64,000 nucleotides of DNA, from positions 31,056-95,055 of the forward strand of contig CAYOPL010000029.1 of NCBI GenBank assembly GCA_964405845.1, given 5' to 3'. The stretch comes from an uncultured Dehalococcoidia bacterium. GTDB taxonomy: Bacteria > Chloroflexota > Dehalococcoidia > UBA6926. The notes beneath the pieces were generated by a model. That model was not told where the DNA came from. It searched no databases and saw only the letters and a program-made list of their open reading frames with translations. This document shows, one piece after another, positions 6,512-16,473 of the stretch; the first letter of the stretch is position 1; each line of letters opens with the position of its first letter. Made by a program: the position numbers and the translations under genes.

Positions 6512-7459
6512 GTGCCCTTGCTGCTAACTGAACAGGATGTCCTTGATCTTTCAACGATGGACGACGCTATCGCGGCGCTTGAGAGCGCCCACAAGAGCCA
6601 GGGGGCGGGCAGGGCGGTGAACGATCCGCGCCGCCGTCTCCGCGCTCCGCATGGAGCTGTGGCCATCATGCCGGGCGGTGACGCCGAGACGGGATTCCTG
6701 GGATTCAAGACAGCGTTCTATGCCGCGGGCGCTGTCCACGTTCTCCTTTATGACATGACTGAACGCAAGCTCGCGGCGATTGTCCAGGCGAATTGGCTTG
6801 GCACGCTGCGCACGGGAGCGGCGAGCGGCGTTGCGACAAAGTACATGGCGCGAGAGGACGCGGGGCAGACAGTCGGAATCATCGGGACAGGCATGCAGGC
6901 GCGGACGCAGGTTTCTGCGGTGTGCGCGGTGCGGAACGTGTCGCGGGTTCTCGCCTATGGGCGGGACGAGAACCGACGCAGGACGTTCGCGGAGCGGATT
7001 GGCGAGAGGGTAGGGGTTCCGGTGGAGCCGGTGGATAACGCGCAGGTTGTTGGCGAGGCGGACATCGTGATTACCGCGACGAATGCGTCGTCACCGGTGT
7101 TGGAGGGCGTGTGGCTCAAAGCGGGGGCGCATGTGAACGCCATCGGCTCGAACTCATTGCTTCGCCGGGAGATTGATATGGAGGCCGTAAGAAGGGCGGA
7201 CGCCATTGTGGTTGATGACCGCGAGCAGTCTGCTTTGGAAAGCGGTGATCTGCAGGAGCCAATCGAGCGCGGGATCGTTGATCTGGCGAGGCTGCCGGAG
7301 CTTGGGGACGTTGTTGCCGGTGGCCAGTCCGTCCGCGGATCAGACAGTGACATCACGCTGTTCGAGTCGCACGGCATCGGGTTGTGGGATGTTGCGCTGG
7401 CGACGCAAGTGTACCGGGCGGCGGTGGAACAGGGCAGAGGGACGCAGGCGGATATCTAG
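6512..7459 (+). CDS. Ornithine cyclodeaminase / mu-crystallin family protein
   Basis: 315 aa. Motifs: LGTLRTGAASGVATKYMA and the Rossmann segment VGIIGTGMQARTQV. GTG start preceded by GGGAGGTGA. Confidence 0.8.
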   Translation: MPLLLTEQDVLDLSTMDDAIAALESAHKSQGAGRAVNDPRRRLRAPHGAVAIMPGGDAETGFLGFKTAFYAAGAVHVLLYDMTERKLAAIVQANWLGTLRTGAASGVATKYMAREDAGQTVGIIGTGMQARTQVSAVCAVRNVSRVLAYGRDENRRRTFAERIGERVGVPVEPVDNAQVVGEADIVITATNASSPVLEGVWLKAGAHVNAIGSNSLLRREIDMEAVRRADAIVVDDREQSALESGDLQEPIERGIVDLARLPELGDVVAGGQSVRGSDSDITLFESHGIGLWDVALATQVYRAAVEQGRGTQADI

Positions 7460-7789: not shown

Positions 7790-8329
7790 GTGGCAAAGAC
7801 TCTACCCAAGACATACCTCACCACGTTCCTGCTTCTCGCGGTTCTAGCTGTCGGCGCCGGGCTATTCGCGGCGTGCGCCGAGACTGAACCTGTCACGGAT
7901 GCGGAGACTGCCGAAATCAAGTCGGTGTTGGATGACCGTTCATTCCGGCAATTCGACTCGGGGGTGGACGATAGCCCACGAAAAGGCGTCATCATCGATT
8001 TCTTTAGCGGTGTAGAAGTGTGGGCGCAGTACGCGGAGGGTGACTACGCCGTTGATGAGTGGCGGATATACGCGTCCGACTACCGCATCGAGAAGTCCGG
8101 AGGTCTCTCCAACATCACCATCTACCTTGAGAACCCGGGTAGTGAGCGCATCCTGACGGAGCCGTGCCAGGACTGCATCCCCATGGACGGTTTTTCTATC
8201 TCCATACGCAACGCCCTTGATGAGGACGATATACGCTTCCGGTTGAATGATCCGAACGATGTGCTGCCGTCCCCGTTCCCGGTGTTTACGTCGTGGACGC
8301 GTTTCTCCGAGGACGAATACTTCGAGTAA
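7790..8329 (+). CDS. Hypothetical lipoprotein
   Basis: 179 aa with a signal peptide and lipobox (LAVGAGLFAAC). No recognisable catalytic motif. GTG start 10 nt after the preceding stop. Confidence 0.5.
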   Translation: MAKTLPKTYLTTFLLLAVLAVGAGLFAACAETEPVTDAETAEIKSVLDDRSFRQFDSGVDDSPRKGVIIDFFSGVEVWAQYAEGDYAVDEWRIYASDYRIEKSGGLSNITIYLENPGSERILTEPCQDCIPMDGFSISIRNALDEDDIRFRLNDPNDVLPSPFPVFTSWTRFSEDEYFE

Positions 8330-8373
8330 CCTTCGGCCCTATTGAGCAACGTTCTCGGCAGCGGATGCCTGCT

Positions 8374-9732
8374 CTATTCGTACCAGCCGGACGCGAAGAT
8401 GTAGCCGTCGTGCAGGACGGCCCACGTGTGCTTGCGGGAGTCCTCGCCGGTGCCGGGGTTGCGAATCACATATTCGATCCAGACGCCCTCTTCCGTGGCG
8501 GCAAGCAGGTCATCCCCGTAGAAGTAGCCTGTTGGATCGACGCGTAGGGCAGGGTCACGATCCCTCAGATCAGGATTGAAGTGGCCGATTGTGCGGCCGG
8601 TATCCGTGTCTACGATGACCACGTACCACTGTTCATCCACGCTTATCGGATCGCTGTAATACTCGAGAGCCACGTCCAGCCCGGAGGAGTTGTACAGGTT
8701 GATTGCCTGTTCCACAAGGGCCTGGGTGTATTCCGGCTCATCGGACTTGGGAGGGCCGTCCTCATACCAGCCGGAGCCGAAGATCAGGCCGTCATGCTCA
8801 ACCAGCCATGAGTGCTTGGTCTGGGAGCGGTTGGACGTGGGATTGTAGAAGATGTACTCGGACCAAGCGCCGTCTTCCGTCGCGTCATCCGCCACGATTT
8901 GGCCGGACGGGTAGCCGTTCACGCCTGTGACATCGACGAGGGGCGTGCCAACAAGGTCCCTGTTCGCGCCATGCACGATGAGTTGACCGGTCTCATCGGC
9001 TATGAACATGTACCACTGGTCATCAACACCGCTCGGGCCGTTGTAGTAGTCGATTAGCGCCTGTCGGCCGGATGCCTCGTAAAGCCCTATTGCCAGATTG
9101 ACGTATTCCTGCGTATAGACGGGCTGGTCGGACTCTGGGCGCGCCCCGCCGGACCAGGACGATGAGGCAAAGACCAGGCCGTCGTGTTTGACGACCCAAA
9201 GGTGTTGGAGCTCGACGCTTCCAAAGAAACTGCTGGCGAGGTAGTCAATCCGGATACCCTCTTCGCGGGCGCCGTCGATCACCATCTGCCCGGCAGGGTA
9301 GTGGTTGTGCCCCTTGAATTCGGAATCATGCACCCCGACCCAATCAGGGAACGCTGCCATGGACACGATGTAGCCTTCTTCATCGAGGATGAATACGTGC
9401 CAATCACCATCAAGGCTCTCGTCGGAGTTATAGAAGGCAATCGTTTCTTCGCGCCCGTTGGTTCCGTAGTGATCGATCGCCTGTTGGACCAATGCCTGCG
9501 CATACGCCAGAGGTTCATCCTTTGAGACGGTGATAGGGGCGTCGTCAGTTTCGGTTGACGTAGCGACGCCGGTATCACCAGGTTCGGCTTCAGCTGTTGG
9601 GTCCGCCGATTCGTTGGAACAGGACGCGAGAAGTGAGACGACCACAGCCAGGACAATGAGCAGAGCTGCGAGAGAAGTGCGTTGGGCGAGCTGCCTCAAG
9701 GCAGTGGATGGAGCGACAGATGTCATTTTCAC
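8374..9732 (-). CDS. Secreted lipoprotein made of three tandem sCache_2-like (single Cache) repeats
   Basis: 452 aa with lipobox LLASC and an acidic T/E-rich tether. Three ~128-aa repeats follow, each with A(I/L)xxY..G...A..YY...S.D(D/E)QWY.FI.D..G and ...K.xW.V.HDG.IF.SGWY, matching the sCache_2 consensus. No transmembrane or output domain. Confidence 0.7.
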   Translation of the reverse strand: MKMTSVAPSTALRQLAQRTSLAALLIVLAVVVSLLASCSNESADPTAEAEPGDTGVATSTETDDAPITVSKDEPLAYAQALVQQAIDHYGTNGREETIAFYNSDESLDGDWHVFILDEEGYIVSMAAFPDWVGVHDSEFKGHNHYPAGQMVIDGAREEGIRIDYLASSFFGSVELQHLWVVKHDGLVFASSSWSGGARPESDQPVYTQEYVNLAIGLYEASGRQALIDYYNGPSGVDDQWYMFIADETGQLIVHGANRDLVGTPLVDVTGVNGYPSGQIVADDATEDGAWSEYIFYNPTSNRSQTKHSWLVEHDGLIFGSGWYEDGPPKSDEPEYTQALVEQAINLYNSSGLDVALEYYSDPISVDEQWYVVIVDTDTGRTIGHFNPDLRDRDPALRVDPTGYFYGDDLLAATEEGVWIEYVIRNPGTGEDSRKHTWAVLHDGYIFASGWYE

Positions 9733-9918
9733 TAGTAGCCTCCGCCAGGTCTTGGGTCGGCTGAATAAATGCCTGCGGCGCGGTCATACCATTGTACGAC
9801 GGGCAACTTATTGAGACTACACGGCACTTGCCAATCTCAATAAAGTTGACACTCCTGACTCACTTTGGTAATCCTGTTGCATTCCACGAATGGGTCCGCG
9901 AAAGCGCATGAGCAAATA

Positions 9919-9933
9919 TGATACTCAGTATCG
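9919..9933. promoter_or_regulatory. Fur-family (Zur-like) 7-1-7 box candidate: TGATACT-C-AGTATCG
   Basis: 11/14 match to the classical TGATAAT-N-ATTATCA motif. The core GATACT-C-AGTATC is a perfect 6-1-6 palindrome. It sits mid-way in the divergent intergenic region between the Cache lipoprotein and the metal-binding lipoprotein. Confidence 0.5.
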
Positions 9934-10034
9934 TTATTCTGCCAACTGTGTGCCTGAGCAACCCAATGTTGAGTGGGGCGAGCTGTAAGTAACACATCAC
10001 CATGGATTCACGAATCAGGATGGCTGGAGATAAG

Positions 10035-10049
10035 TGATACTGAATCTCA
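10035..10049. promoter_or_regulatory. Second, weaker Fur-family box candidate: TGATACT-G-AATCTCA
   Basis: 11/14 match to TGATAAT-N-ATTATCA. It shares the TGATACT half-site with the box at 9919 and ends 68 nt upstream of the ATG at 10118. Confidence 0.3.
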
Positions 10050-10117
10050 CTAAGGCAGACCAAGGGCGGCGTGTTACGGCCGCCGCAATAACACCGACAT
10101 TTCGGTAGGGGGACACC

Positions 10118-12415
10118 ATGAAGAAACTTCCATTCCATAGTGTGGGTACGGCAAGAGCGTTCGGTCTCTTGCTTCTTACGCTCGCGCTTTTACTGGTACT
10201 GGCTGTCGCGGCATGCGAGAGCGAGGACGATCCAACTTCGACACCCGGATCCACTGATACATCGACCGGCACGGAGCAGACGTCAAGCACCGGCACTGAC
10301 ACCAGTGGCAGCACCGACACTGGCAGTACCCAGACAGGATCGTCCGGGGATTCCCAGATGGACGGCGACCCGCTCTTGGTGGTTGCCACGAGCAACATCG
10401 TTGCCGATTGGGTGAAGAACGTCGGCGGTGACCGGGTAGAGGTGATGAGCCTGCTGCCGGTGGGCGGAGACCCGCATACATACCAGCCCGGGGCGCGTGA
10501 CGTTGCGCACATTGTGGATGCGGACCTCGTCCTGACCGTTGGTCTTGGACTTGAGGGCGCGTGGCTTGAGGAGCTCATCCACAACGCGAGCGCTGACGAG
10601 TCGCGCATCATCGCCCTTGGCGGCGCCATCGACCCGATTGAATTCGCAGAGACCGGCGGCCATCACGACGAAGAAGAGGAAATGGAGGAGATGGGCCATG
10701 AGGAACTCTCCGGCCGGCTCCTGATTGCCGATGGAGATATCGGCGCGCTGTCGGTCTTGGACCTCATGACGGATCAACTGGACGAGAGAAGCCTGGAAGT
10801 GGCGGCTCCGTCAGCAACGCTCTATACGAGCCCGAGCGGACGCTTCGCCTTTGCTCTCGCCCGCGGCCCCGAGGATGCGGACGACCGTGTCCATATCTTC
10901 GATGGCGGCGTCTACCTTGAGGAGCACGGCGATCACTTTGACCAAGTCACAGAGCCTGTTTCCGCGCTGACCGTAGGTACCTCTGATGAGGGGCCCATCA
11001 ACGTCAGTGTCCATAGCGGCTGGACCACCATCTTCCACGATGCCTCCGGACGCGTTGCGCTGTTCGAGGAACACGACCTTGAGGAAGAACTCAATGAGTA
11101 CGAGCCGACCTGGCTTGACGCAGGCGCGCAGGAGAATGGCGTGGGCGTCGCGCTGGGCGAGGGTTACGTTATGGTGACCTCCGGGAACCCGGACGCCACC
11201 GGCGTAGAGGTTCGTACGCTTGATGGCGACGTCGTCTTTGACGAGGCGTCGGGCGCATGCCCGGGCCTCCAGGGTGAGGCCGCCAACGCCCACGGCGTGG
11301 TGTTTGGCTGCGTCGGCGGCGTACTGTTCATCGAGGGCCATGACGGCGAATACGAGTACGAGTTCGTCGAGAACCCGGCCGACATGAATGCAGCGGCCCG
11401 CATCAGCACGCTGTGGGGCCATGATGACTCCGAGTACTTCTTCGGCTCCGCCTCGTACAGGGATGATCAGGGTAATCGTCTTAACGGCGGGCTCTGGAGG
11501 ATCGATGCCGAGGGCGGCGAAATGTCGCTCATCTTGCCTCCAACCGACGAGAAGCGTGTGGTAAGTGTTGCGTTTGATGGTCACGGCGAGGAACTGTTCG
11601 CCCTGACGTACGACGGCGTACTAAATGTCATCCATCCGGAAGAGGGCGAGGTAGAGGAAACCTACGAGCTTGTAGAGGCGTTTGACGGCGACACCTCGCC
11701 ATCGTTCATCGTCGTTGGCGAGCTGCTCTACCTGTCAGACAGGGTTGGCGGGCGCATTATTGAGTTCAGCCTTGAAGAGGGCGAGATTGAGCGTGAGTGG
11801 GCCATCGGCGGGCAGCCGCGCAGCCTGGCGTTCGTCGGGTTGGGCGTCGAGGAGAGCGAAGAGGGCCACGCCGACCATGGCCACGGGCCGCTTGATCCGC
11901 ACTTCTGGTTCGACCCGAATCGCGTCAGTGACGCCGTCATTGAAATCGCCACCCGACTTGCCATTCTGGATCCGGCCGGGGTGGAGACCTACACGGCTAA
12001 CGCCACCGCTTACGTAGCTCAGCTGCAGGAGCTCCACGCGTGGACCGAACAGCAACTGAGCGGCATCCCCAACGAAGACCGAATCCTCATCACGTCGCAT
12101 GACAGCCTCAGCTACTTCGCTGTCGTGTACGGGTTCGAAGTTGTTGGCACCGTCATCCCTGGCGGGACCACGGAGACGGAATCGTCCGCCGAACAGCTTG
12201 CCGAGCTCATTGAGATTGTGGAACACGAGGGTGTTCAGGCCATCTTCGGCGAGACGACTGTTTCGGAACGAATCGCTCGTGCTGTCGCCGAGGAGACGGG
12301 CGCAGGGTTCTACAGCCTGTACTCCGGCTCCCTTGGCGCGGCGGGCAGCGGCGCGGACACGTTCCTTACGATGATCCGCAGCAACGTTGAGATCATCGCG
12401 GAGGCTTTGGGCTAG
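10118..12415 (+). CDS. Cluster A-I (ZnuA/TroA-type) metal-binding lipoprotein with a ~380-aa beta-propeller-like domain nested in the His-rich loop
   Basis: 765 aa with lipobox LAVAAC and an S/T/G/D tether. N-lobe: LLVVATSNIVADWVKNVGG, GGDPHTYQP. C-lobe: LDPHFWFDP, TSHDSLSYFA, IFGETTVSE. Between GGHHDEEEEMEEMGHEE (about 10655-10708) and EESEEGHADHGHG (about 11849-11890) lies a beta-strand-rich insert (VHIFDGGVYLEEHGDHFD, GVVFGCVGGVLFIEG, LFALTYDGVLNVI, LYLSDRVGGRIIEF). Confidence 0.85.
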   Translation: MKKLPFHSVGTARAFGLLLLTLALLLVLAVAACESEDDPTSTPGSTDTSTGTEQTSSTGTDTSGSTDTGSTQTGSSGDSQMDGDPLLVVATSNIVADWVKNVGGDRVEVMSLLPVGGDPHTYQPGARDVAHIVDADLVLTVGLGLEGAWLEELIHNASADESRIIALGGAIDPIEFAETGGHHDEEEEMEEMGHEELSGRLLIADGDIGALSVLDLMTDQLDERSLEVAAPSATLYTSPSGRFAFALARGPEDADDRVHIFDGGVYLEEHGDHFDQVTEPVSALTVGTSDEGPINVSVHSGWTTIFHDASGRVALFEEHDLEEELNEYEPTWLDAGAQENGVGVALGEGYVMVTSGNPDATGVEVRTLDGDVVFDEASGACPGLQGEAANAHGVVFGCVGGVLFIEGHDGEYEYEFVENPADMNAAARISTLWGHDDSEYFFGSASYRDDQGNRLNGGLWRIDAEGGEMSLILPPTDEKRVVSVAFDGHGEELFALTYDGVLNVIHPEEGEVEETYELVEAFDGDTSPSFIVVGELLYLSDRVGGRIIEFSLEEGEIEREWAIGGQPRSLAFVGLGVEESEEGHADHGHGPLDPHFWFDPNRVSDAVIEIATRLAILDPAGVETYTANATAYVAQLQELHAWTEQQLSGIPNEDRILITSHDSLSYFAVVYGFEVVGTVIPGGTTETESSAEQLAELIEIVEHEGVQAIFGETTVSERIARAVAEETGAGFYSLYSGSLGAAGSGADTFLTMIRSNVEIIAEALG

Positions 12416-12445
12416 ATAAACTTCCCTCCCCAGTCTCCTCCTCTC

Positions 12446-12492
12446 AGGCGAGGGTCGGCTCCCAGCCCCGGGCGCCGGCTCCTCGCCTTTTT
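12446..12492 (+). terminator. Rho-independent terminator candidate after the metal-binding lipoprotein gene
   Basis: AGGCGAGG (12446-12453) pairs with CCTCGCCT (12481-12488), with additional CGGC/GCCG pairing inside. A TTTTT run follows directly. Confidence 0.55.
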
Positions 12493-12582
12493 CTAGCAAC
12501 GGCATGCGTCAGTTTCATTAGGCCCGCGCCACCGCTATGCCGATATAGTGGAAACCGCGACCACTGATGAGAGGGGAACCGG

Positions 12583-14442
12583 ATGACGTCCGCAGAGACG
12601 ACTGTTAGGGGATTGATGGAGAGCACGACGGCGGAGGCGCTTGCCGATCCCCGTCTTCGCAGCCTGTTAGGCGGCGCGATGCCCCGTGATGATATGCAGG
12701 CGTTCTTCCGGCGATTTCTAGTCACTCATCTGAACTCCGTGCAGATCCTCGCATTCCTAACGTCCATCGCCCCGCCGCAGGTTATGGAGGCCATCAAGGA
12801 GAACCTGCTGGAAGAGATGGGCTTTGAGGAGAGTGAGAAGTCGCACCCGGAACTTGTGGAGGACCTGGCGCGCGGGCTCGGCTACTCGGAACAGGACCTG
12901 ATCCGCGTCCACGCGGAGGCTGATGAGTCCCGACGGGCATTCATCTCCACTCCCATTCCGTATACAACCATGCGCGAGTTTGGTCTCGCCGTTCTGTTGG
13001 AAAACGTCGCCTTTGAGTATTTCCTCTCCCGATTCAGTGACGGGATGGCGAATTCGCTGGTCAACAACTATGGCCTGACTCCGGAAGCCGCCATGTGGTT
13101 CACGCTGCACGGCGAGGTTGATATTCGCCACGCGGAGGAGGGGCAGCTGGCCATACTCGGCTACGCGTCTCACTATCGGTTCGGGCCCGAGGAGTTTGAG
13201 CAGATTGCCCGGCAAACGTTTGCCGAGAACGTAGTGCTGAACCGCTACTTCCCACCCGATTCCGATGCTCCGTCGCGTCATGGCACAAGCGCCCTGAGCG
13301 CCGTCGACATCATGCCGCTTCGTATCCCGTTCCAGCAGGCGTTCACGCACTCCACCATGAGCCGTGCTGAGAGCGACGCGATTGTCGTACGGGTCACTGG
13401 TACAGATGGCGTGACCGGCTACGGCGAATCACTGCCGCGCCCCTATGTCACAGGGGAGGATGTTGAGGCCGTCGTTGGCGCGATTCGAGACGATCTCGCG
13501 CCGCAGGCGCTTGGGTTGACTCTTGAATCCGGGCCCGCCGCTGTCCCGCAGATCGACGAGTTCCTCAGCGAATGGAAACGCAACCGTCCTACGTCCGTTG
13601 GCATTGTCGCGTGGAACGCCACCGCCTGCGCGCTGGAGCTTGCGTTGCTTGATTGGGCGTTCAAGCGGGCAGGGCAGTCCGTCATGACATGGCTGCCGCC
13701 CGCTCGCGCCAACGTCACGTACACGGGGGTTATCGACGCCTCAGACCCCGCCACGGCGGCGGGCATGGCGCGGCGCTTCACTCAGGCGGGCATGACCTCC
13801 ATCAAGGTGAAGGTCGGCATCGATGATGATGCCGCGCGACTGCAGGCGGTGCGGGAGGCGGTTGGCGACGATGTTGAGATCCGCGTGGACGCCAACGGGG
13901 TATGGTCGGCTGACGGGGCGGTTGCCGCCCTGAACGCGCTCACGGCCTACAACATTGTGGCCGTGGAACAGCCGGTTACTGCCACGGACCTTGACGGCAT
14001 GAGGCAGGTCCGCGAGCAGACGGGGCTGCGCGTCATTGCGGATGAGTCACTCCTAACGGAAGAGAATGCCGCCGCGCTCATTGCCGCCAAGGCCTGTGAC
14101 GTGTTCAATATCCGTGTCTCCAAGTGCGGTGGGTTGATCGCCTCGGCTCGCATCGCTCAGATAGCCGCTGATGCCGGAGTCGGTGTGCAGATCGGCGCGC
14201 AAGTGGGGGAGACGTCGCTGCTTTCAGCGGCGGGGCGCGTACTGGCAGCGCATGTTCCGTCCCTTGAGTATCTTGAAGGGTCGTTCGGGACGCATCTGCT
14301 AAGCGAGGACATCGCATTCGAGCCGGTCATGTTCGGGTATGGAGGCCGCGGCGAATTGCTGCCACGCCCGGGGCTCGGTGTTGCGGTGAACGAGGATGCG
14401 CTGGGACAGCTGGCCCAAGAAACGATAACAATCGAACCGTAG
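12583..14442 (+). CDS. Fusion protein: heme-oxygenase-like iron-containing redox enzyme domain (N) + enolase-superfamily MLE-subgroup domain (C; dipeptide epimerase/OSBS/NSAR-like)
   Basis: 619 aa. N-terminal ~235 aa: IKENLLEEMGFEESEKSHPELVEDLARGLG, LLENVAFEYF and FTLHGEVDIRHAEEG, the carboxylate/His helix pattern of the Haem_oxygenas_2/CADD/PqqC-like family. C-terminal part: KxK motif SIKVKVG, metal ligands in IRVDANG, AVEQPV and VIADES, second catalytic Lys in FNIRVSKCGGL. Confidence 0.8.
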   Translation: MTSAETTVRGLMESTTAEALADPRLRSLLGGAMPRDDMQAFFRRFLVTHLNSVQILAFLTSIAPPQVMEAIKENLLEEMGFEESEKSHPELVEDLARGLGYSEQDLIRVHAEADESRRAFISTPIPYTTMREFGLAVLLENVAFEYFLSRFSDGMANSLVNNYGLTPEAAMWFTLHGEVDIRHAEEGQLAILGYASHYRFGPEEFEQIARQTFAENVVLNRYFPPDSDAPSRHGTSALSAVDIMPLRIPFQQAFTHSTMSRAESDAIVVRVTGTDGVTGYGESLPRPYVTGEDVEAVVGAIRDDLAPQALGLTLESGPAAVPQIDEFLSEWKRNRPTSVGIVAWNATACALELALLDWAFKRAGQSVMTWLPPARANVTYTGVIDASDPATAAGMARRFTQAGMTSIKVKVGIDDDAARLQAVREAVGDDVEIRVDANGVWSADGAVAALNALTAYNIVAVEQPVTATDLDGMRQVREQTGLRVIADESLLTEENAAALIAAKACDVFNIRVSKCGGLIASARIAQIAADAGVGVQIGAQVGETSLLSAAGRVLAAHVPSLEYLEGSFGTHLLSEDIAFEPVMFGYGGRGELLPRPGLGVAVNEDALGQLAQETITIEP

Positions 14443-14450
14443 GAATATTC

Positions 14451-16112
14451 ATGTCCCTTATCTCCCGACTCCTCGGCCTGCAGGGCCGCCTGGCCTGGAG
14501 GTCATTTGACCGCGCGACGCGTGATCCCGACGGCGCTCAACTACGCCTGTTGCAGCGCATCCTGAACGCCAATGCGGACACGATATTTGGGCGCGAGCAC
14601 GGTTTCTCCTCAATCAGCAATTTTGAGGAGTACCGGGACGCGGTTCCAGTCGGCGACTTTGAGGCCGTCCGTCCATGGGTGGACCGCATCATGGCGGGTG
14701 AGCGCAGCGTCCTGACTCGTGATGATCCGTACCTGTTTGCGATGACGAGCGGCACGGCCGGCCAGCCCAAGCTCATTCCCGTTACGACAGCCACCAGCAA
14801 GTTCGTCAGCGCGCTATCCCGTCTCTGGCTCTACCGCAACACCGTTGACCATCCGCATGTTCTTGACCACAAGGCGTTGGTCATCGTCAGTCCGGCCATT
14901 GAGGGATACACGGAGAGCGGCATTCCGTATGGCTCGGCCTCCGGCTATATCTACCGCAACGCCGCGTGGATGATCAGGCGGCGCTATGCCGTTCCGTATC
15001 CCGTCTTTGGGATCAAGGACTACGAGGCCAAATACTACACGGTTATGCGATTCGCCATCGAGCAGCAGTTGTCTCTGATCGCGTCTCCCAACCCCTCCAC
15101 GATTCTCCGTCTTGTGGATACGGCAAATGCGAATGCCGAGCGTCTCATCCGTGACATTCACGACGGCACTATCACCGGCGACGCCGAGATTGAACCCGAG
15201 CTGCGCGCCGAGCTTATTGCCCACCTCCGTCCCAACGTCTCCCGGGCTGCCGAACTCTCGACCATCCTCGAGCGGGAAGGGGCGCTGAGGCCGCGGGACT
15301 ACTGGCCGGGGCTGGCGCTTGTGGGCTGTTGGAAAGGTGGAAGTGTGGGGGCGACTGTCGACCGTCTCCGCCCGTGGTTTCCGGCCGGCATGGCTTTCCG
15401 CGACCTCGGGTTTCTTGCCAGCGAGGCGAATTTCACCCTGCCCATTGAGGATGAGGGGTCGCGCGGGATTCTCGCCATCACCGGCAACGTCTATGAATTC
15501 ATTGCGGAGGACGAGATCGATTCTCCCAACCCGCGTGTGCTCACGGCAGGCCAGCTTGAGGACGACGGGAGCTACTACGTCATCGTCACGACGCAGAGCG
15601 GCCTCTATCGCTATGACATCAACGACGTTGTCCGCGTGAACGGGTTTCATAATCGAACGCCGAAGATCGAGTTCCTGCGCAAGGGCAGGGACATGCTGAG
15701 CCTGGAGGGTGAAAAGCTGCACGTCGGGCAGCTGATTGAGGCGATGCGGGAGGCGCAGGCGGCGACCGGCGTTGCCGTCGAGTATTTTCGTGCTCTTGGC
15801 TACCCCGCCGCCAATCGCTACAGCCTGCAATTGGAGCTGCGGGATGCCGCGGCGCCGGAGGAGGCAGTCATTCGCCTGGGCAGAGCGATTGATGAGGGCC
15901 TGTCCCGCCTGAACATCGAATATGAACAGAAACGCGGCTCCGGGCGTCTCCGTCCTCCGCTTGTGCAGGTGATGGAAGACGGCTGGTCGTCGCGCCGCCT
16001 CGCCGCCAAGATGGCCAATGCCGTTCGGGATATCCAATACAAGGACGCGCTGCTGGCGCTTGCCGGGGATGACGCGGATGAGAGCGAAGTTAAACACGAG
16101 TTGACTCTCTGA
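14451..16112 (+). CDS. GH3-family acyl-acid amido synthetase (adenylate-forming)
   Basis: 553 aa. Motifs: FAMTSGTAGQPKLIPVT (GH3 motif I), YGSASGY, GLYRYDINDVVRVNGFHNRTPKIEFLRKGRDMLSLEGEKL (near-canonical GH3 motif III region). The start lies 8 nt after the stop of the fusion gene. Confidence 0.85.
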   Translation: MSLISRLLGLQGRLAWRSFDRATRDPDGAQLRLLQRILNANADTIFGREHGFSSISNFEEYRDAVPVGDFEAVRPWVDRIMAGERSVLTRDDPYLFAMTSGTAGQPKLIPVTTATSKFVSALSRLWLYRNTVDHPHVLDHKALVIVSPAIEGYTESGIPYGSASGYIYRNAAWMIRRRYAVPYPVFGIKDYEAKYYTVMRFAIEQQLSLIASPNPSTILRLVDTANANAERLIRDIHDGTITGDAEIEPELRAELIAHLRPNVSRAAELSTILEREGALRPRDYWPGLALVGCWKGGSVGATVDRLRPWFPAGMAFRDLGFLASEANFTLPIEDEGSRGILAITGNVYEFIAEDEIDSPNPRVLTAGQLEDDGSYYVIVTTQSGLYRYDINDVVRVNGFHNRTPKIEFLRKGRDMLSLEGEKLHVGQLIEAMREAQAATGVAVEYFRALGYPAANRYSLQLELRDAAAPEEAVIRLGRAIDEGLSRLNIEYEQKRGSGRLRPPLVQVMEDGWSSRRLAAKMANAVRDIQYKDALLALAGDDADESEVKHELTL

Positions 16113-16209
16113 TATCCATCCCGCGCCTGTATGTTCTGCTATACTCGGATAGAACCAGAGAGAGAAGAGAAAGAACAGAGGAACGGCGATAGCCCGCGGC
16201 GGAGGCAGT

Positions 16210-16473
16210 TTGGATCGGCAGACCAAGTCCCAAATCATTGAAGAATACAGGGGGCACCCGACTGATTCCGGTTCGACTGAGGTACAGGTCGCAGTCTTGA
16301 GTAGACGAATTAGCGATTTGACCGGACATCTACAAGTTCACCGCCACGATCATGCGACAAGGAGAGGCCTGCTGATGCTCGTTGGCCAGCGGCGCAGGTT
16401 GCTCCGATACCTCCGCCGAAAAGACGTAGGACGATACCAGTCCCTTATCGCGTCACTCGGCCTGCGTAGATAA
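16210..16473 (+). CDS. rpsO: 30S ribosomal protein S15
   Basis: 87 aa: GSTEVQVAVLSRRISDLTGHLQVHRHDHATRRGLLMLVGQRRRLLRYL. TTG start with GGAGG upstream. Confidence 0.95.
   Translation: MDRQTKSQIIEEYRGHPTDSGSTEVQVAVLSRRISDLTGHLQVHRHDHATRRGLLMLVGQRRRLLRYLRRKDVGRYQSLIASLGLRR

Follow-up and report, generated by a model that had tools for sequence, protein, structure and literature searches.

Heme-oxygenase-like dimetal oxidases (HDOs) such as SznF, UndA, BesC, HrmI, RohS, FlcD and AetD have a common dimetal O2-activating scaffold that tailors amino acids and fatty acids. Among solved HDOs, the best match in sequence and structure to the domain described here is CADD (CT610; PDB 1rcw, 8va9), a p-aminobenzoate (pABA) synthase with a sacrificial Tyr27 (PMC9522330). 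SznF, an HDO plus cupin, is a reported precedent for joining such an oxidase with another catalytic domain in one protein (PMC7848743). Within the enolase superfamily, the closest solved relative of our MLE-subgroup domain is 2p88, the N-succinyl-Arg/Lys racemase of Bacillus cereus. The only characterized bacterial GH3 enzyme is OlsH, a planctomycete lyso-ornithine-lipid synthetase that produces N-acyl-ornithine from free fatty acids (PMC12493201) and is partnered by OlsI. In the literature searched, no HDO is reported to share a polypeptide or an operon with an enolase-superfamily enzyme or a GH3 ligase, a 2026 HDO review mentions neither linkage, and no characterized system or paper on an HDO-MLE-GH3 cassette was found, in agreement with the original remark that no characterized system with this fusion or gene pairing was known.

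Such a combination is present in the window, that is, the whole stretch of 64,000 nucleotides analyzed, where all features given below lie on the forward strand. Two ORFs, whose positions and 8-nt spacing were re-read from the sequence and are as first given, encode a 619-aa HDO-MLE fusion (12583-14442) and a 553-aa GH3 amido synthetase (14451-16112); the fusion ORF runs to its first stop, TAG (14440-14442), after which the next ATG comes at 14451. The expected domains were all matched by Pfam HMMs, namely Haem_oxygenas_2 (PF14518; residues 39-206, 5.5e-18), MR_MLE_N (244-368, 1.2e-6) and MR_MLE_C (396-606, 1.5e-49) in the fusion, and the N (1.2e-66), M (2e-20) and C (2.9e-7) domains in the GH3 ORF. 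These scores are far above chance, and every motif string quoted earlier was found at its expected residues.

The description of this unit as insulated, with its own -10 region and followed by an rpsO promoter, stands only in part. Upstream, a GC-rich hairpin followed by a T-tract (12446-12494) is real: the hairpin (12446-12488) has a dG of -34.4 kcal/mol (z = -4.52; 0 of 200 shuffles fold equally well), with UUUUUCU directly 3' of it. It is likely the intrinsic terminator of the upstream gene for an AztC/AztD-like zinc-binding protein; a simple terminator scan missed it because its loop is above the limit of the scan. The -10-like hexamer TATAGT (12544-12549), 33 nt 5' of the fusion start codon, is a candidate promoter element, and a purine run, AGAGGGG (12570-12576), 6 nt before the ATG, may act as a Shine-Dalgarno sequence. 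A TATACT (16140-16145) lies in the 97-nt spacer (16113-16209) between GH3 and rpsO, the latter confirmed by a Ribosomal_S15 match at 1.3e-34. However, by consensus scan neither hexamer has a -35 partner and no sigma-70-type promoter occurs upstream of the fusion or between GH3 and rpsO, and no terminator was detected by scanning the spacer.

The two genes of the window are the local form of a widely conserved three-enzyme cassette. In species-representative reference genomes, 73 of the 79 loci have GH3 as the very next gene downstream; they come from at least six phyla, the taxa being Chloroflexota, Binatia/'delta' MAGs, Syntrophobacter/Thermodesulfobacteriota, Nitrospira, Omnitrophota, Cyanobacteria and Sericytochromatia. 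The linkage also holds from the GH3 side, as reverse searches from divergent GH3 genes recover the HDO and MLE partners; the flanking genes differ wholly between loci, and identities co-diverge (r ~0.98). HDO and MLE are separate adjacent genes in cyanobacteria, Omnitrophota, Nitrospira and Sericytochromatia (split, often with a 4-nt overlap, in at least 20 loci and fused in the remainder), and we therefore regard the system as a module of three components, with HDO and MLE as a Rosetta-stone fusion. The proposed two-gene unit is correct for this window; viewed across taxa, the module comprises three genes and is often accompanied by further ones with a membrane association. A functional link between the three catalytic units is supported by these observations. 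Syntrophobacter, Omnitrophota and Thermodesulfobacteriota are usually regarded as anaerobes, and such host lineages fit awkwardly with an O2-dependent HDO.

Several membrane- or lipid-related neighbors recur, which hints that the N-acyl amino acid produced is lipophilic. One family, of hydrophobic proteins of ~150 aa with about four TM segments (counted by eye), occurs at 24 loci in six taxon groups. An Aas/LplT-like MFS-acyltransferase-acyl-activating protein is immediately upstream in 17 loci, while seven cyanobacterial and Sericytochromatia loci carry a CocE/NonD S15 hydrolase whose hydrophobic N-terminus, judged by eye, is probably a membrane anchor. An ICMT/PEMT carboxyl methyltransferase follows GH3 in one locus (L063), and a neighbor in another (L069) belongs to the same sequence cluster. 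None of these accessory genes is universal across loci, and none lies within the 64-kb window. Some of the synteny, for example with BioB and DUF3617 in Binatia, may reflect common ancestry and not common function.

From the domain identities, intact catalytic residues and obligate gene linkage observed, we infer, at about an even chance, that the cassette synthesizes and modifies an N-acyl amino acid; its substrates, order of steps and nature of the product are put forward below as proposals.

The MLE-subgroup domain (capping domain plus TIM barrel; residues 236-619, with the stop 13288-14442) has 2p88 as its closest solved relative by sequence (E 8e-43) and as its top Foldseek match (TM 0.92, 29% identity). 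Its key residues were tabulated across 88 loci, with strand ends taken from DSSP. The two proteins have in common the capping domain and barrel, the β2 KxK (K408/K410, 13804-13812), three metal ligands (D436, 13888-13890; E462, 13966-13968; D487, 14041-14043), a second-shell Lys at +3, and an E-x-x-G motif at β8 (EGSFG, 14275-14289) instead of DxD. The residues opposite D321 and D323 of 1jpm are S567 and G569; DxD is the motif that we take to bind the free N-terminus of a dipeptide, and its absence would fit a substrate with a blocked amine. By analogy, the action of 2p88 on N-acyl amino acids would point to the same substrate class.

The domain had been called complete, which is true of KxK and the metal ligands but not of the second lysine. 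The Lys of VSKCGG (K514) falls in the alignment at the second-shell position that is K271/R266 in characterized relatives, whereas R511 occupies the place at the β6 end where the canonical catalytic lysine stands in the NIK motif of 2p88/NSAR (R511 with K514 at +3, 14113-14124). R511 is invariant in GH3-linked loci and becomes Q or G in GH3-less loci. Simple two-base epimerization is doubtful because of this invariant Arg and the second-shell place of K514, and on the alignment the 'racemase' analogy to 2p88/NSAR is incomplete. A further difference from the NSAR and dipeptide epimerase families is the link of this domain to an HDO, by fusion or by translational coupling. No NCBIfam equivalog cutoff is reached, and orthology to dipeptide epimerases, NSAR/OSBS or muconate cycloisomerases was rejected.

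In the NSAR and DgcN + DgcA pathways, N-acylation is known to work together with an MLE-type racemase. On the model of N-succinyltransferase + NSAR + desuccinylase, or of DgcN + DgcA, the cassette could instead serve catabolism or salvage, converting or degrading an environmental D-amino acid or N-acyl amino acid through N-acylation by GH3, stereoinversion by MLE and irreversible oxidation by HDO. The MLE domain does resemble N-succinyl-Arg/Lys racemase and matches DgcA (N-acetyl-D-Glu racemase), many hosts (Dehalococcoidia/SAR202 relatives, Binatia) degrade organic matter, and catabolic genes such as CoA-transferases, MaoC and luciferase-like monooxygenases are nearby. However, we consider this role unlikely: the DgcA match reaches 111 bits against a cutoff of 400, the β6 Lys needed for two-base racemization is Arg in every GH3-linked member, and no deacylase or amidohydrolase is consistently linked. 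In addition, the module occurs in photoautotrophic cyanobacteria beside membrane proteins, not transporters or catabolic genes, and the ATP cost of a ligase is unusual for catabolism.

The GH3 ligase has the three-domain architecture of OlsH and of plant JAR1 and GH3.8, and its expected chemistry, the ATP-dependent joining of an acid to an amino acid through an amide bond, would be alike. The plant-type motifs proposed for it were confirmed: with motif definitions from PMC12493201, all three nucleotide-binding motifs are intact and conserved across loci (TSGTAGQPK, 14745-14771; LASE, 15414-15425; GLYRYDIND, 15600-15626). Plant GH3 structures are matched at 1.7e-27 (~100 bits), and OlsH is the only NCBIfam model matched, at 77 bits versus a cutoff of 620 and over residues 337-507 only. 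Given these scores, we place the enzyme in a separate clade. OlsH is no nearer to it than the plant GH3s that conjugate hormones are, so fatty acids cannot be taken as its established substrate. That it is an OlsH orthologue making a lyso-ornithine lipid, with HDO and MLE as mere lipid-modifying accessories, is improbable. The OlsH model match, the use of free fatty acids plus ornithine by OlsH, and the presence in some lineages of an α/β-hydrolase-fold gene (S15 family) and Aas-like lipid genes close to the module speak for it; against it, the nucleotide motifs are nearer the plant consensus than those of OlsH, an OlsI-type partner is absent from the window and not consistent elsewhere, and the OlsH system lacks HDO and MLE, the obligate partners of this GH3. 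OlsH orthology was thus rejected on score and partners.

The HDO domain (12583-13254) gave an AF2 model with pLDDT 90.3, whose top Foldseek matches are CADD, HrmI, FlcD and RohS, with SznF and stand-alone HDOs among its structural neighbors. Aligned to CADD and FlcD, it has all six 3-His/3-carboxylate ligands, as the proposed diiron site calls for: E78 (12814-12816), H88 (12844-12846), E145 (13015-13017), H176 (13108-13110), D180 (13120-13122) and H183 (13129-13131). They are invariant in alignments A2, A3 and A4. The first Glu-His pair is spaced E-x9-H here and in FlcD, versus E-x6-H in CADD; SznF has the E-x9-H spacing too. With 53 representatives at E <= 1e-30, this is a small clade with sharp limits. 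All 75 GH3-linked loci in which the N-domain is complete keep the ligand set EHEHDH intact, and in all seven loci of the GH3-less subclade it is degenerate; integrity of these ligands and of R511 covaries with the presence of GH3, which counts toward the cassette building and tailoring an N-acyl amino acid.

The nearness of CADD, the closest solved HDO relative by sequence (E ~5e-5 to 2e-4) and of the same helical fold (TM 0.69/0.76), raises another option, in which an aromatic acid, for instance pABA, would be formed by a CADD-like HDO and joined to glutamate by GH3, as 4-substituted benzoates are by Arabidopsis GH3.12, giving a pABA-Glu-like folate precursor or related aromatic conjugate; the PDB entry '4-substituted benzoates-glutamate ligase GH3.12' is indeed among the GH3 matches. 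This is very improbable. Identity to CADD is ~16%, the CADD-family model TIGR04305 scores 28 bits versus a cutoff of 200, CADD Tyr27 corresponds to L25, a position that varies among family members between L, V, Y, F and T, and its neighbor Lys152 corresponds to M155; identity as a CADD-type pABA synthase was rejected on the residues and the model score. Unlike CADD, the HDO here always goes together with MLE and GH3 partners. Moreover, no folate genes occur in any neighborhood examined, the patchy, cassette-like spread is unlike that of an essential vitamin pathway, and the MLE enzyme would be left without a role.

The two fused domains are joined by a linker (residues 225-235, PDSDAPSRHGT; 13255-13287) with pLDDT below 50 at residues 227-230 in the full-length model and 227-240 in the N-domain model; it is variable in homologue alignment A1 and is the gene split point in cyanobacteria and other lineages. 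That the 619-aa ORF is a missed stop or misassembly beside an unrelated GH3 has next to no probability. High-GC genomes can in principle yield long spurious ORFs, but nothing supports this reading here and it is refuted by more than 120 independent full-length homologue clusters with the same architecture (46-92% identity), the 79 genome loci, the GH3 linkage amid unrelated flanks and a confident two-domain model (pLDDT 89.6, pTM 0.86).

For the synthesis and tailoring of an N-acyl amino acid, we propose the following course. GH3 would use ATP to adenylate a carboxylic acid and couple this acid to the α-amine of an amino acid; the α-carboxylate of the resulting N-acyl amino acid would stay free. 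The Mg2+ site of the MLE-type domain would bind this carboxylate, and its β2 lysines would support enolate chemistry at Cα. With Arg in place of the β6 Lys, a one-base reaction is likelier than classical two-base racemization, and could be β-elimination, dehydration, cyclization or stereospecific protonation of an unsaturated intermediate. The HDO, with its dimetal site and O2, would hydroxylate, desaturate or oxidatively decarboxylate the same scaffold, and HDO and MLE probably catalyze consecutive steps where they are fused or translationally coupled. The product is probably lipophilic or membrane-associated, for example, a modified lipoamino acid or signal molecule. Of the make-epimerize-oxidize chain first suggested, the linkage of the three units is borne out, but the epimerization step is weakened by R511. 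The cassette of HDO, MLE-type and GH3 enzymes is real, widely conserved and uncharacterized.

The two genes form a three-component module that contains a Rosetta-stone fusion. The first (12583-14442, + strand, TAG stop at 14440-14442) encodes a 619-aa protein in which a heme-oxygenase-like dimetal oxidase (HDO) domain is joined to an MLE-subgroup domain of the enolase superfamily, and the second (14451-16112, + strand, ATG start at 14451) encodes a GH3 amido synthetase of 553 aa. Both open reading frames (ORFs) lie where the original prediction had placed them, including the 8 nt read between the fusion stop and the GH3 ATG, and the motif strings quoted there were all present at verified coordinates. 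The domain identities for which HMM confirmation had been proposed were also recovered by Pfam: Haem_oxygenas_2 (PF14518) at fusion residues 39-206 (5.5e-18, 65.8 bits against a cutoff of 28.9), MR_MLE_N at 244-368, MR_MLE_C at 396-606 (1.5e-49), and the N, M, and C domains of GH3 (1.2e-66, 2e-20, and 2.9e-7; 225.5, 73.1, and 31.6 bits, all above 23.6). The description of the unit as insulated is half supported: a hairpin upstream of the fusion (12446-12488; -34.4 kcal/mol, z = -4.5 by RNA folding, then a U-tract) is a plausible terminator of the preceding AztC/AztD-like zinc-binding protein gene, but the consensus scan found no sigma-70-type promoter, and between GH3 and rpsO it found no terminator.

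The housekeeping genes rpsO, pnp, dapB, and asd surround the cassette in the window. Two antisense ORFs on the - strand, at 14814-16238 (474 aa) over GH3 and 12757-13350 (197 aa) over the fusion, are typical shadow ORFs of a ~62% GC genome and not genes. No Rfam family reached the gathering score anywhere in the 64-kb window, tRNAs and riboswitches included, so a riboswitch or other known RNA upstream of the cassette was rejected; a defence system was rejected as well, since neither the fusion nor the GH3 protein matched a PADLOC family. The gene at 10118-12415 (+) encodes 765 aa and looks like an AztC-AztD fusion, with a Ser/Thr/Gly-rich, lipoprotein-like N-terminus and a ZnuA/AztC-type zinc-binding fold in two separated stretches, into which an AztD-like zinc-metallochaperone β-propeller is inserted (residues 205-573; NF038015, 121 bits). 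At 8374-9732 (-) lies the gene of a lipoprotein-like, internally repetitive protein of 452 aa with repeated Cache-type sensor domains (sCache_2/dCache_2) and no signalling output domain attached. An ornithine cyclodeaminase/mu-crystallin family gene at 6512-7459 (+), ~5 kb upstream of the cassette, is conserved in the corresponding place in the closest relatives (315-aa cluster, loci L010-L018) and has no evident tie to the cassette.

The pairing of fusion and GH3 gene, on which the original prediction had staked its proposal, recurs in other genomes. A scan of one genome per species gave 111 related places, from which 79 distinct loci were retained. By taxon label, these genome loci comprise Dehalococcoidia/Chloroflexota (32 loci), Binatia and 'delta proteobacterium' MAGs (18), Cyanobacteria, including cultured Calothrix, Dulcicalothrix, Nostoc, Nodosilinea, and Phormidium (17), unclassified genomes (4), Syntrophobacter, Omnitrophota, and Sericytochromatia (2 each), and Thermodesulfobacteriota, Nitrospira, and Verrucomicrobiia (1 each); the closest genomic relatives are Dehalococcoidia MAGs at 86-88% identity. 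A GH3 gene lies immediately downstream in 73/79 loci (tblastn with the window GH3 as query), and the search in reverse, started from divergent GH3 proteins (47-48% identity), agrees, with HDO and MLE genes, or the fusion, directly upstream. Two of the six loci without GH3 are contigs that end just past the fusion, and the remaining four are members of a single divergent subclade. Flanking genes are unrelated from locus to locus. The identities of MLE and GH3, and of HDO and GH3, co-vary at r ~0.98, which shows that the three genes are inherited as a unit, and which is no independent probability because the genomes are related. On the Dehalococcoidia-like contig of locus L001 (4300-7779 and 15214-16547), the cassette and a CotH/LTD protein gene lie between IS4-type DDE transposase genes, an arrangement consistent with mobility of the cassette.

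In the best-supported reading, to which we give an even chance, the cassette builds an N-acyl amino acid, which is modified by enolate chemistry at Cα and by O2-dependent oxidation. GH3 would form the N-acyl amino acid, the MLE domain would carry out enolate chemistry at its Cα, and the HDO would oxidize with O2 in a step consecutive with that of the MLE domain; the step order, the substrates, and the product are those that we infer.

The MLE-type domain is assigned to the enolase superfamily by its predicted capping domain, TIM-barrel, and three carboxylate ligands. Its best solved relative is the B. cereus N-succinyl-Arg/Lys racemase 2p88 (E 8e-43; Foldseek TM 0.92, 29% identity), and further best relatives are dipeptide epimerases and muconate cycloisomerases. 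The Mg2+ ligands D436, E462, and D487 lie at predicted strand ends (β3, β4, and β5) and are conserved in 88/88 loci; the KxK motif, K408-V-K410, closes the predicted strand 406-410 at the end of β2, and the KKDEDEK pattern is kept in 84/88 loci (K410R in four GH3-less loci). Conserved catalytic lysines are known at the ends of β2 and β6 (bioRxiv 10.1101/2022.03.03.481873). The predicted β6 strand covers residues 507-510, and R511, found in 79/79 GH3-linked loci, stands without indels opposite the end-of-β6 lysine in the NIK motif of the structures 2p88, 3jva, 1jpm, 2qde, and 3q45 (K268 of B. subtilis AEE, 1jpm, counted from the alignment). K514, found in 88/88 loci, is opposite the second-shell residue at +3 (K271 in AEE, R266 in Amycolatopsis NSAR), and the conservation of both residues gives the family signature FN[IVL]-R-x-S-K-[CN]-GG. 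The MLE domain had been called complete; this stands for KxK and the metal ligands but not for the end-of-β6 catalytic lysine, as the lysine of VSKCGG is K514.

In dipeptide epimerases, a DxD motif after β8 binds the free N-terminal ammonium of the dipeptide. It reads FDFD in 1jpm and YDFD in 3q45, whereas the window has GSFG (S567, G569), and EGS[F/Y]G is conserved across loci in place of DxD; this would suit N-blocked substrates, N-acyl amino acids for instance. With R511 at the position of the catalytic β6 lysine, a canonical two-lysine racemase working by 1,1-proton transfer is doubtful; one-base chemistry, or K514 taking over the catalytic role, is possible. The MLE domain reached none of the NCBIfam equivalog cutoffs: the A_G_epim models gave 92 and 76 bits against 500 and 343, mucon_cyclo 149.6 against 334.95, DgcA 110.9 against 400, and the OSBS models 105 against 288 and 86.6 against 200.65. 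A dipeptide epimerase was rejected on the absent DxD and the A_G_epim scores, and NSAR/OSBS, muconate cycloisomerase, and DgcA equivalogs were rejected on motifs and cutoffs. As a rival reading of the cassette, a salvage route for D-amino acids or N-acyl amino acids is, in our judgement, distinctly improbable.

Membership of the downstream enzyme in the GH3 family is assigned from its N, M, and C domains and three nucleotide-binding motifs. In AtGH3.11 these motifs are SSGTSQGRPK, YGSSE, and GLYRYRLGD (PMC12493201); the definitions tested were SSGTxxGxxK, YxSSE, and GLYRYxxGD, and the counterparts in the window, conserved across loci, are TSGTAGQPK, LASE, and GLYRYDIND. Plant GH3 structures were matched at ~1e-27. 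The only characterised bacterial GH3, OlsH, makes N-acyl-ornithine from free fatty acids (PMC12493201), and an OlsH-like aminolipid synthase is an alternative reading, albeit a very unlikely one. The OlsH model NF052613 scores 77.4 bits against a cutoff of 620, over the C-terminal third only, and no gene resembling OlsI, the α/β-hydrolase O-acyltransferase that is the operon partner of OlsH, is adjacent to GH3 in the window; an OlsH orthologue was rejected on both counts.

The N-terminal domain belongs to the HDO superfamily by fold and by ligands, and binding of Fe/Fe or Mn/Fe and activation of O2 are predicted for it. Its AF2 model (pLDDT 90.3, pTM 0.87) matches CADD, HrmI, FlcD, PqqC, RohS, BesC, and UndA at a Foldseek probability of 1.00, CADD with TM 0.69/0.76, and its nearest solved relative in sequence is CADD/CT610 (E ~5e-5 to 2e-4), followed by FlcD. 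The HDO family is defined by a set of three His and three carboxylate ligands (3H/3C) on three core helices (PMC13108848), and this definition, together with alignment to the CADD sequence and the ligand numbering of CADD, served for mapping the ligands. The diiron-ligand alignment proposed earlier found all six retained relative to CADD and FlcD: E78/H88, E145, and H176/D180/H183 align with the ligand positions of both proteins, the first two at the E-x9-H spacing of FlcD, and all are invariant in fused and stand-alone members in three alignments. The clade is small and sharply bounded, with 53 representatives at E <= 1e-30 and 112 at E <= 1e-10 among 1.84 billion in an exhaustive profile search.

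Kinship with CADD raises the alternative of a CADD-like route that ligates an aromatic acid and Glu, to which we give, if anything, a still smaller chance than to an aminolipid synthase. Tyr27 of CADD is sacrificial (PMC9522330), whereas the window HDO has L25 there, at a variable position (L, V, Y, F, or T), and M155 aligned with Lys152, which is next to Tyr27 in CADD; the CADD family model TIGR04305 scores 28.4 bits against a cutoff of 200. A CADD-type pABA synthase was rejected on these grounds. One HDO of the clade, P0300 (L091, 338-2056), is fused C-terminally to a crotonase (ECH) domain, another enolate-stabilising fold, on a 3.8-kb metagenomic contig with no MLE or GH3 gene nearby. This ECH-HDO fusion may reflect a genuine alternative partner, or else a chimeric assembly, and it was left out as evidence because it is a singleton on so short a contig without other partners. 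Finally, an assembly artefact or missed stop in the HDO-MLE fusion is refuted and has virtually no chance, as the same architecture occurs in more than 120 full-length clusters (46-92% identity; protein search) and in the genome loci and is modelled with two domains in the structure prediction.

HDO and MLE occur both joined and apart. They are one gene in Chloroflexota and Binatia, and separate adjacent genes (HDO 234-258 aa, MLE 379-408 aa), commonly with a 4-nt overlap and followed by GH3, in cyanobacteria, Omnitrophota, Nitrospira, Sericytochromatia, and some unclassified MAGs; the split point coincides with a low-confidence linker in the structure prediction (residues 225-235). This alternation argues strongly for joint action of HDO and MLE. 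In locus L040, a 980-aa ORF (9800-12742) continues from the fusion into GH3, and the 510-aa protein P0307 has an HDO profile match at residues 14-198, yet Pfam shows only partial GH3 domains in it; both may have arisen by frameshift or misassembly, or may be larger fusions of a rare kind.

The ligand string E-H-E-H-D-H is intact in 75/75 loci that have an adjacent GH3 and a complete N-domain (L029, one further GH3-linked locus, is 5'-truncated and stands outside the 75), and it is degenerate in 7/7 GH3-less loci, for example by H88R, H176Y, and loss of D180 and H183. These seven loci, of which four belong to the set of 79 genome loci, carry Q or G in place of R511, and four of the seven also have the change of K410. 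The ligands and R511 are kept with GH3 and lost without it, so HDO activity and R511 go hand in hand with GH3. The GH3-less subclade comprises L003/L004/L030 (SAR202), L006/L033, L038, and L060 (Dehalococcoidia), with the gene at ~8001-9870 or 10001-11860; terminase- and portal-like genes precede it, and two to three α/β-hydrolase and several MFS transporter genes follow. Its protein is perhaps a pseudo-enzyme, or one that has been turned to another use.

A more specific proposal, which we consider unlikely, is that HDO and MLE form an unrecognised catalytic pair joining enolate chemistry with oxidation. With Arg for the second catalytic Lys, the MLE domain would have given up racemisation in favour of handling an enolate or α,β-unsaturated intermediate of the GH3-made N-acyl amino acid, which it would either generate or trap for the HDO or take over from the HDO. 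Such a pair would yield a new class of modified lipoamino acid, with, for example, a dehydro, enamide, β-hydroxy, or oxazoline-type head group, which might serve Chloroflexota, Binatia, and filamentous cyanobacteria as a membrane lipid or a signal.

The recurrent neighbours in other loci also bear on the product. A ~150-aa Pfam-less protein with ~4 hydrophobic segments (by eye) occurs in 24 loci of six taxon groups. In 17 loci the gene immediately upstream encodes an Aas/LplT-like MFS-acyltransferase-AMP-binding protein, 8 Dehalococcoidia loci have an FMO-like flavoprotein, and 7 loci from cyanobacteria and Sericytochromatia have a CocE/NonD S15 hydrolase whose N-terminus is hydrophobic. An ICMT/PEMT methyltransferase occurs in L063, with a neighbour from the same cluster in L069. 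This excess of membrane- and lipid-related neighbours is circumstantial evidence for a lipophilic product. None of the accessory genes (membrane protein, FMO, Aas-like, Cu-oxidase_4, DUF3617) was found in the window. Binatia and 'delta' MAGs (L007, L031-L049, L090, and others) share a synteny block of Cu-oxidase_4 (YfiH-like), the Aas/LplT-like protein (1132 aa), fusion, GH3, the 150-aa membrane protein, BioB (398 bits to TIGR00433), and DUF3617, in which BioB is either functionally linked or just syntenic.

Each of the three parts comes from a known superfamily. In agreement with the original prediction, which knew of no characterised system with this fusion or GH3 pairing, the literature searched, where 'GH3' retrieves mostly glycoside hydrolase family 3, held no obligate HDO-MLE-GH3 combination, HDO-enolase fusion, or Arg-for-Lys active site; a 2026 review of HDOs mentions neither fusions nor enolase partners, and no PDB entry spans both fusion domains. 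HDOs are a fast-growing source of unusual oxidative chemistry, and a clade invariably paired with an enolase-superfamily enzyme and a GH3 ligase is undescribed and an opening to new enzymology. An Arg standing in for the β6 Lys would give the MLE subgroup a novel active-site solution within a superfamily that is a textbook case of mechanistic diversity. Bacterial GH3 enzymes are almost unstudied, with one characterised example, and a GH3 clade with defined partners narrows the substrate search. Abundant uncultured Dehalococcoidia and Binatia carry the cassette, and so do cultured cyanobacteria (Calothrix PCC 7103 and PCC 7716, Dulcicalothrix PCC 7102, Nostoc, and Nodosilinea), which makes it experimentally tractable; its product could be a membrane lipid or a signal that has so far escaped notice.
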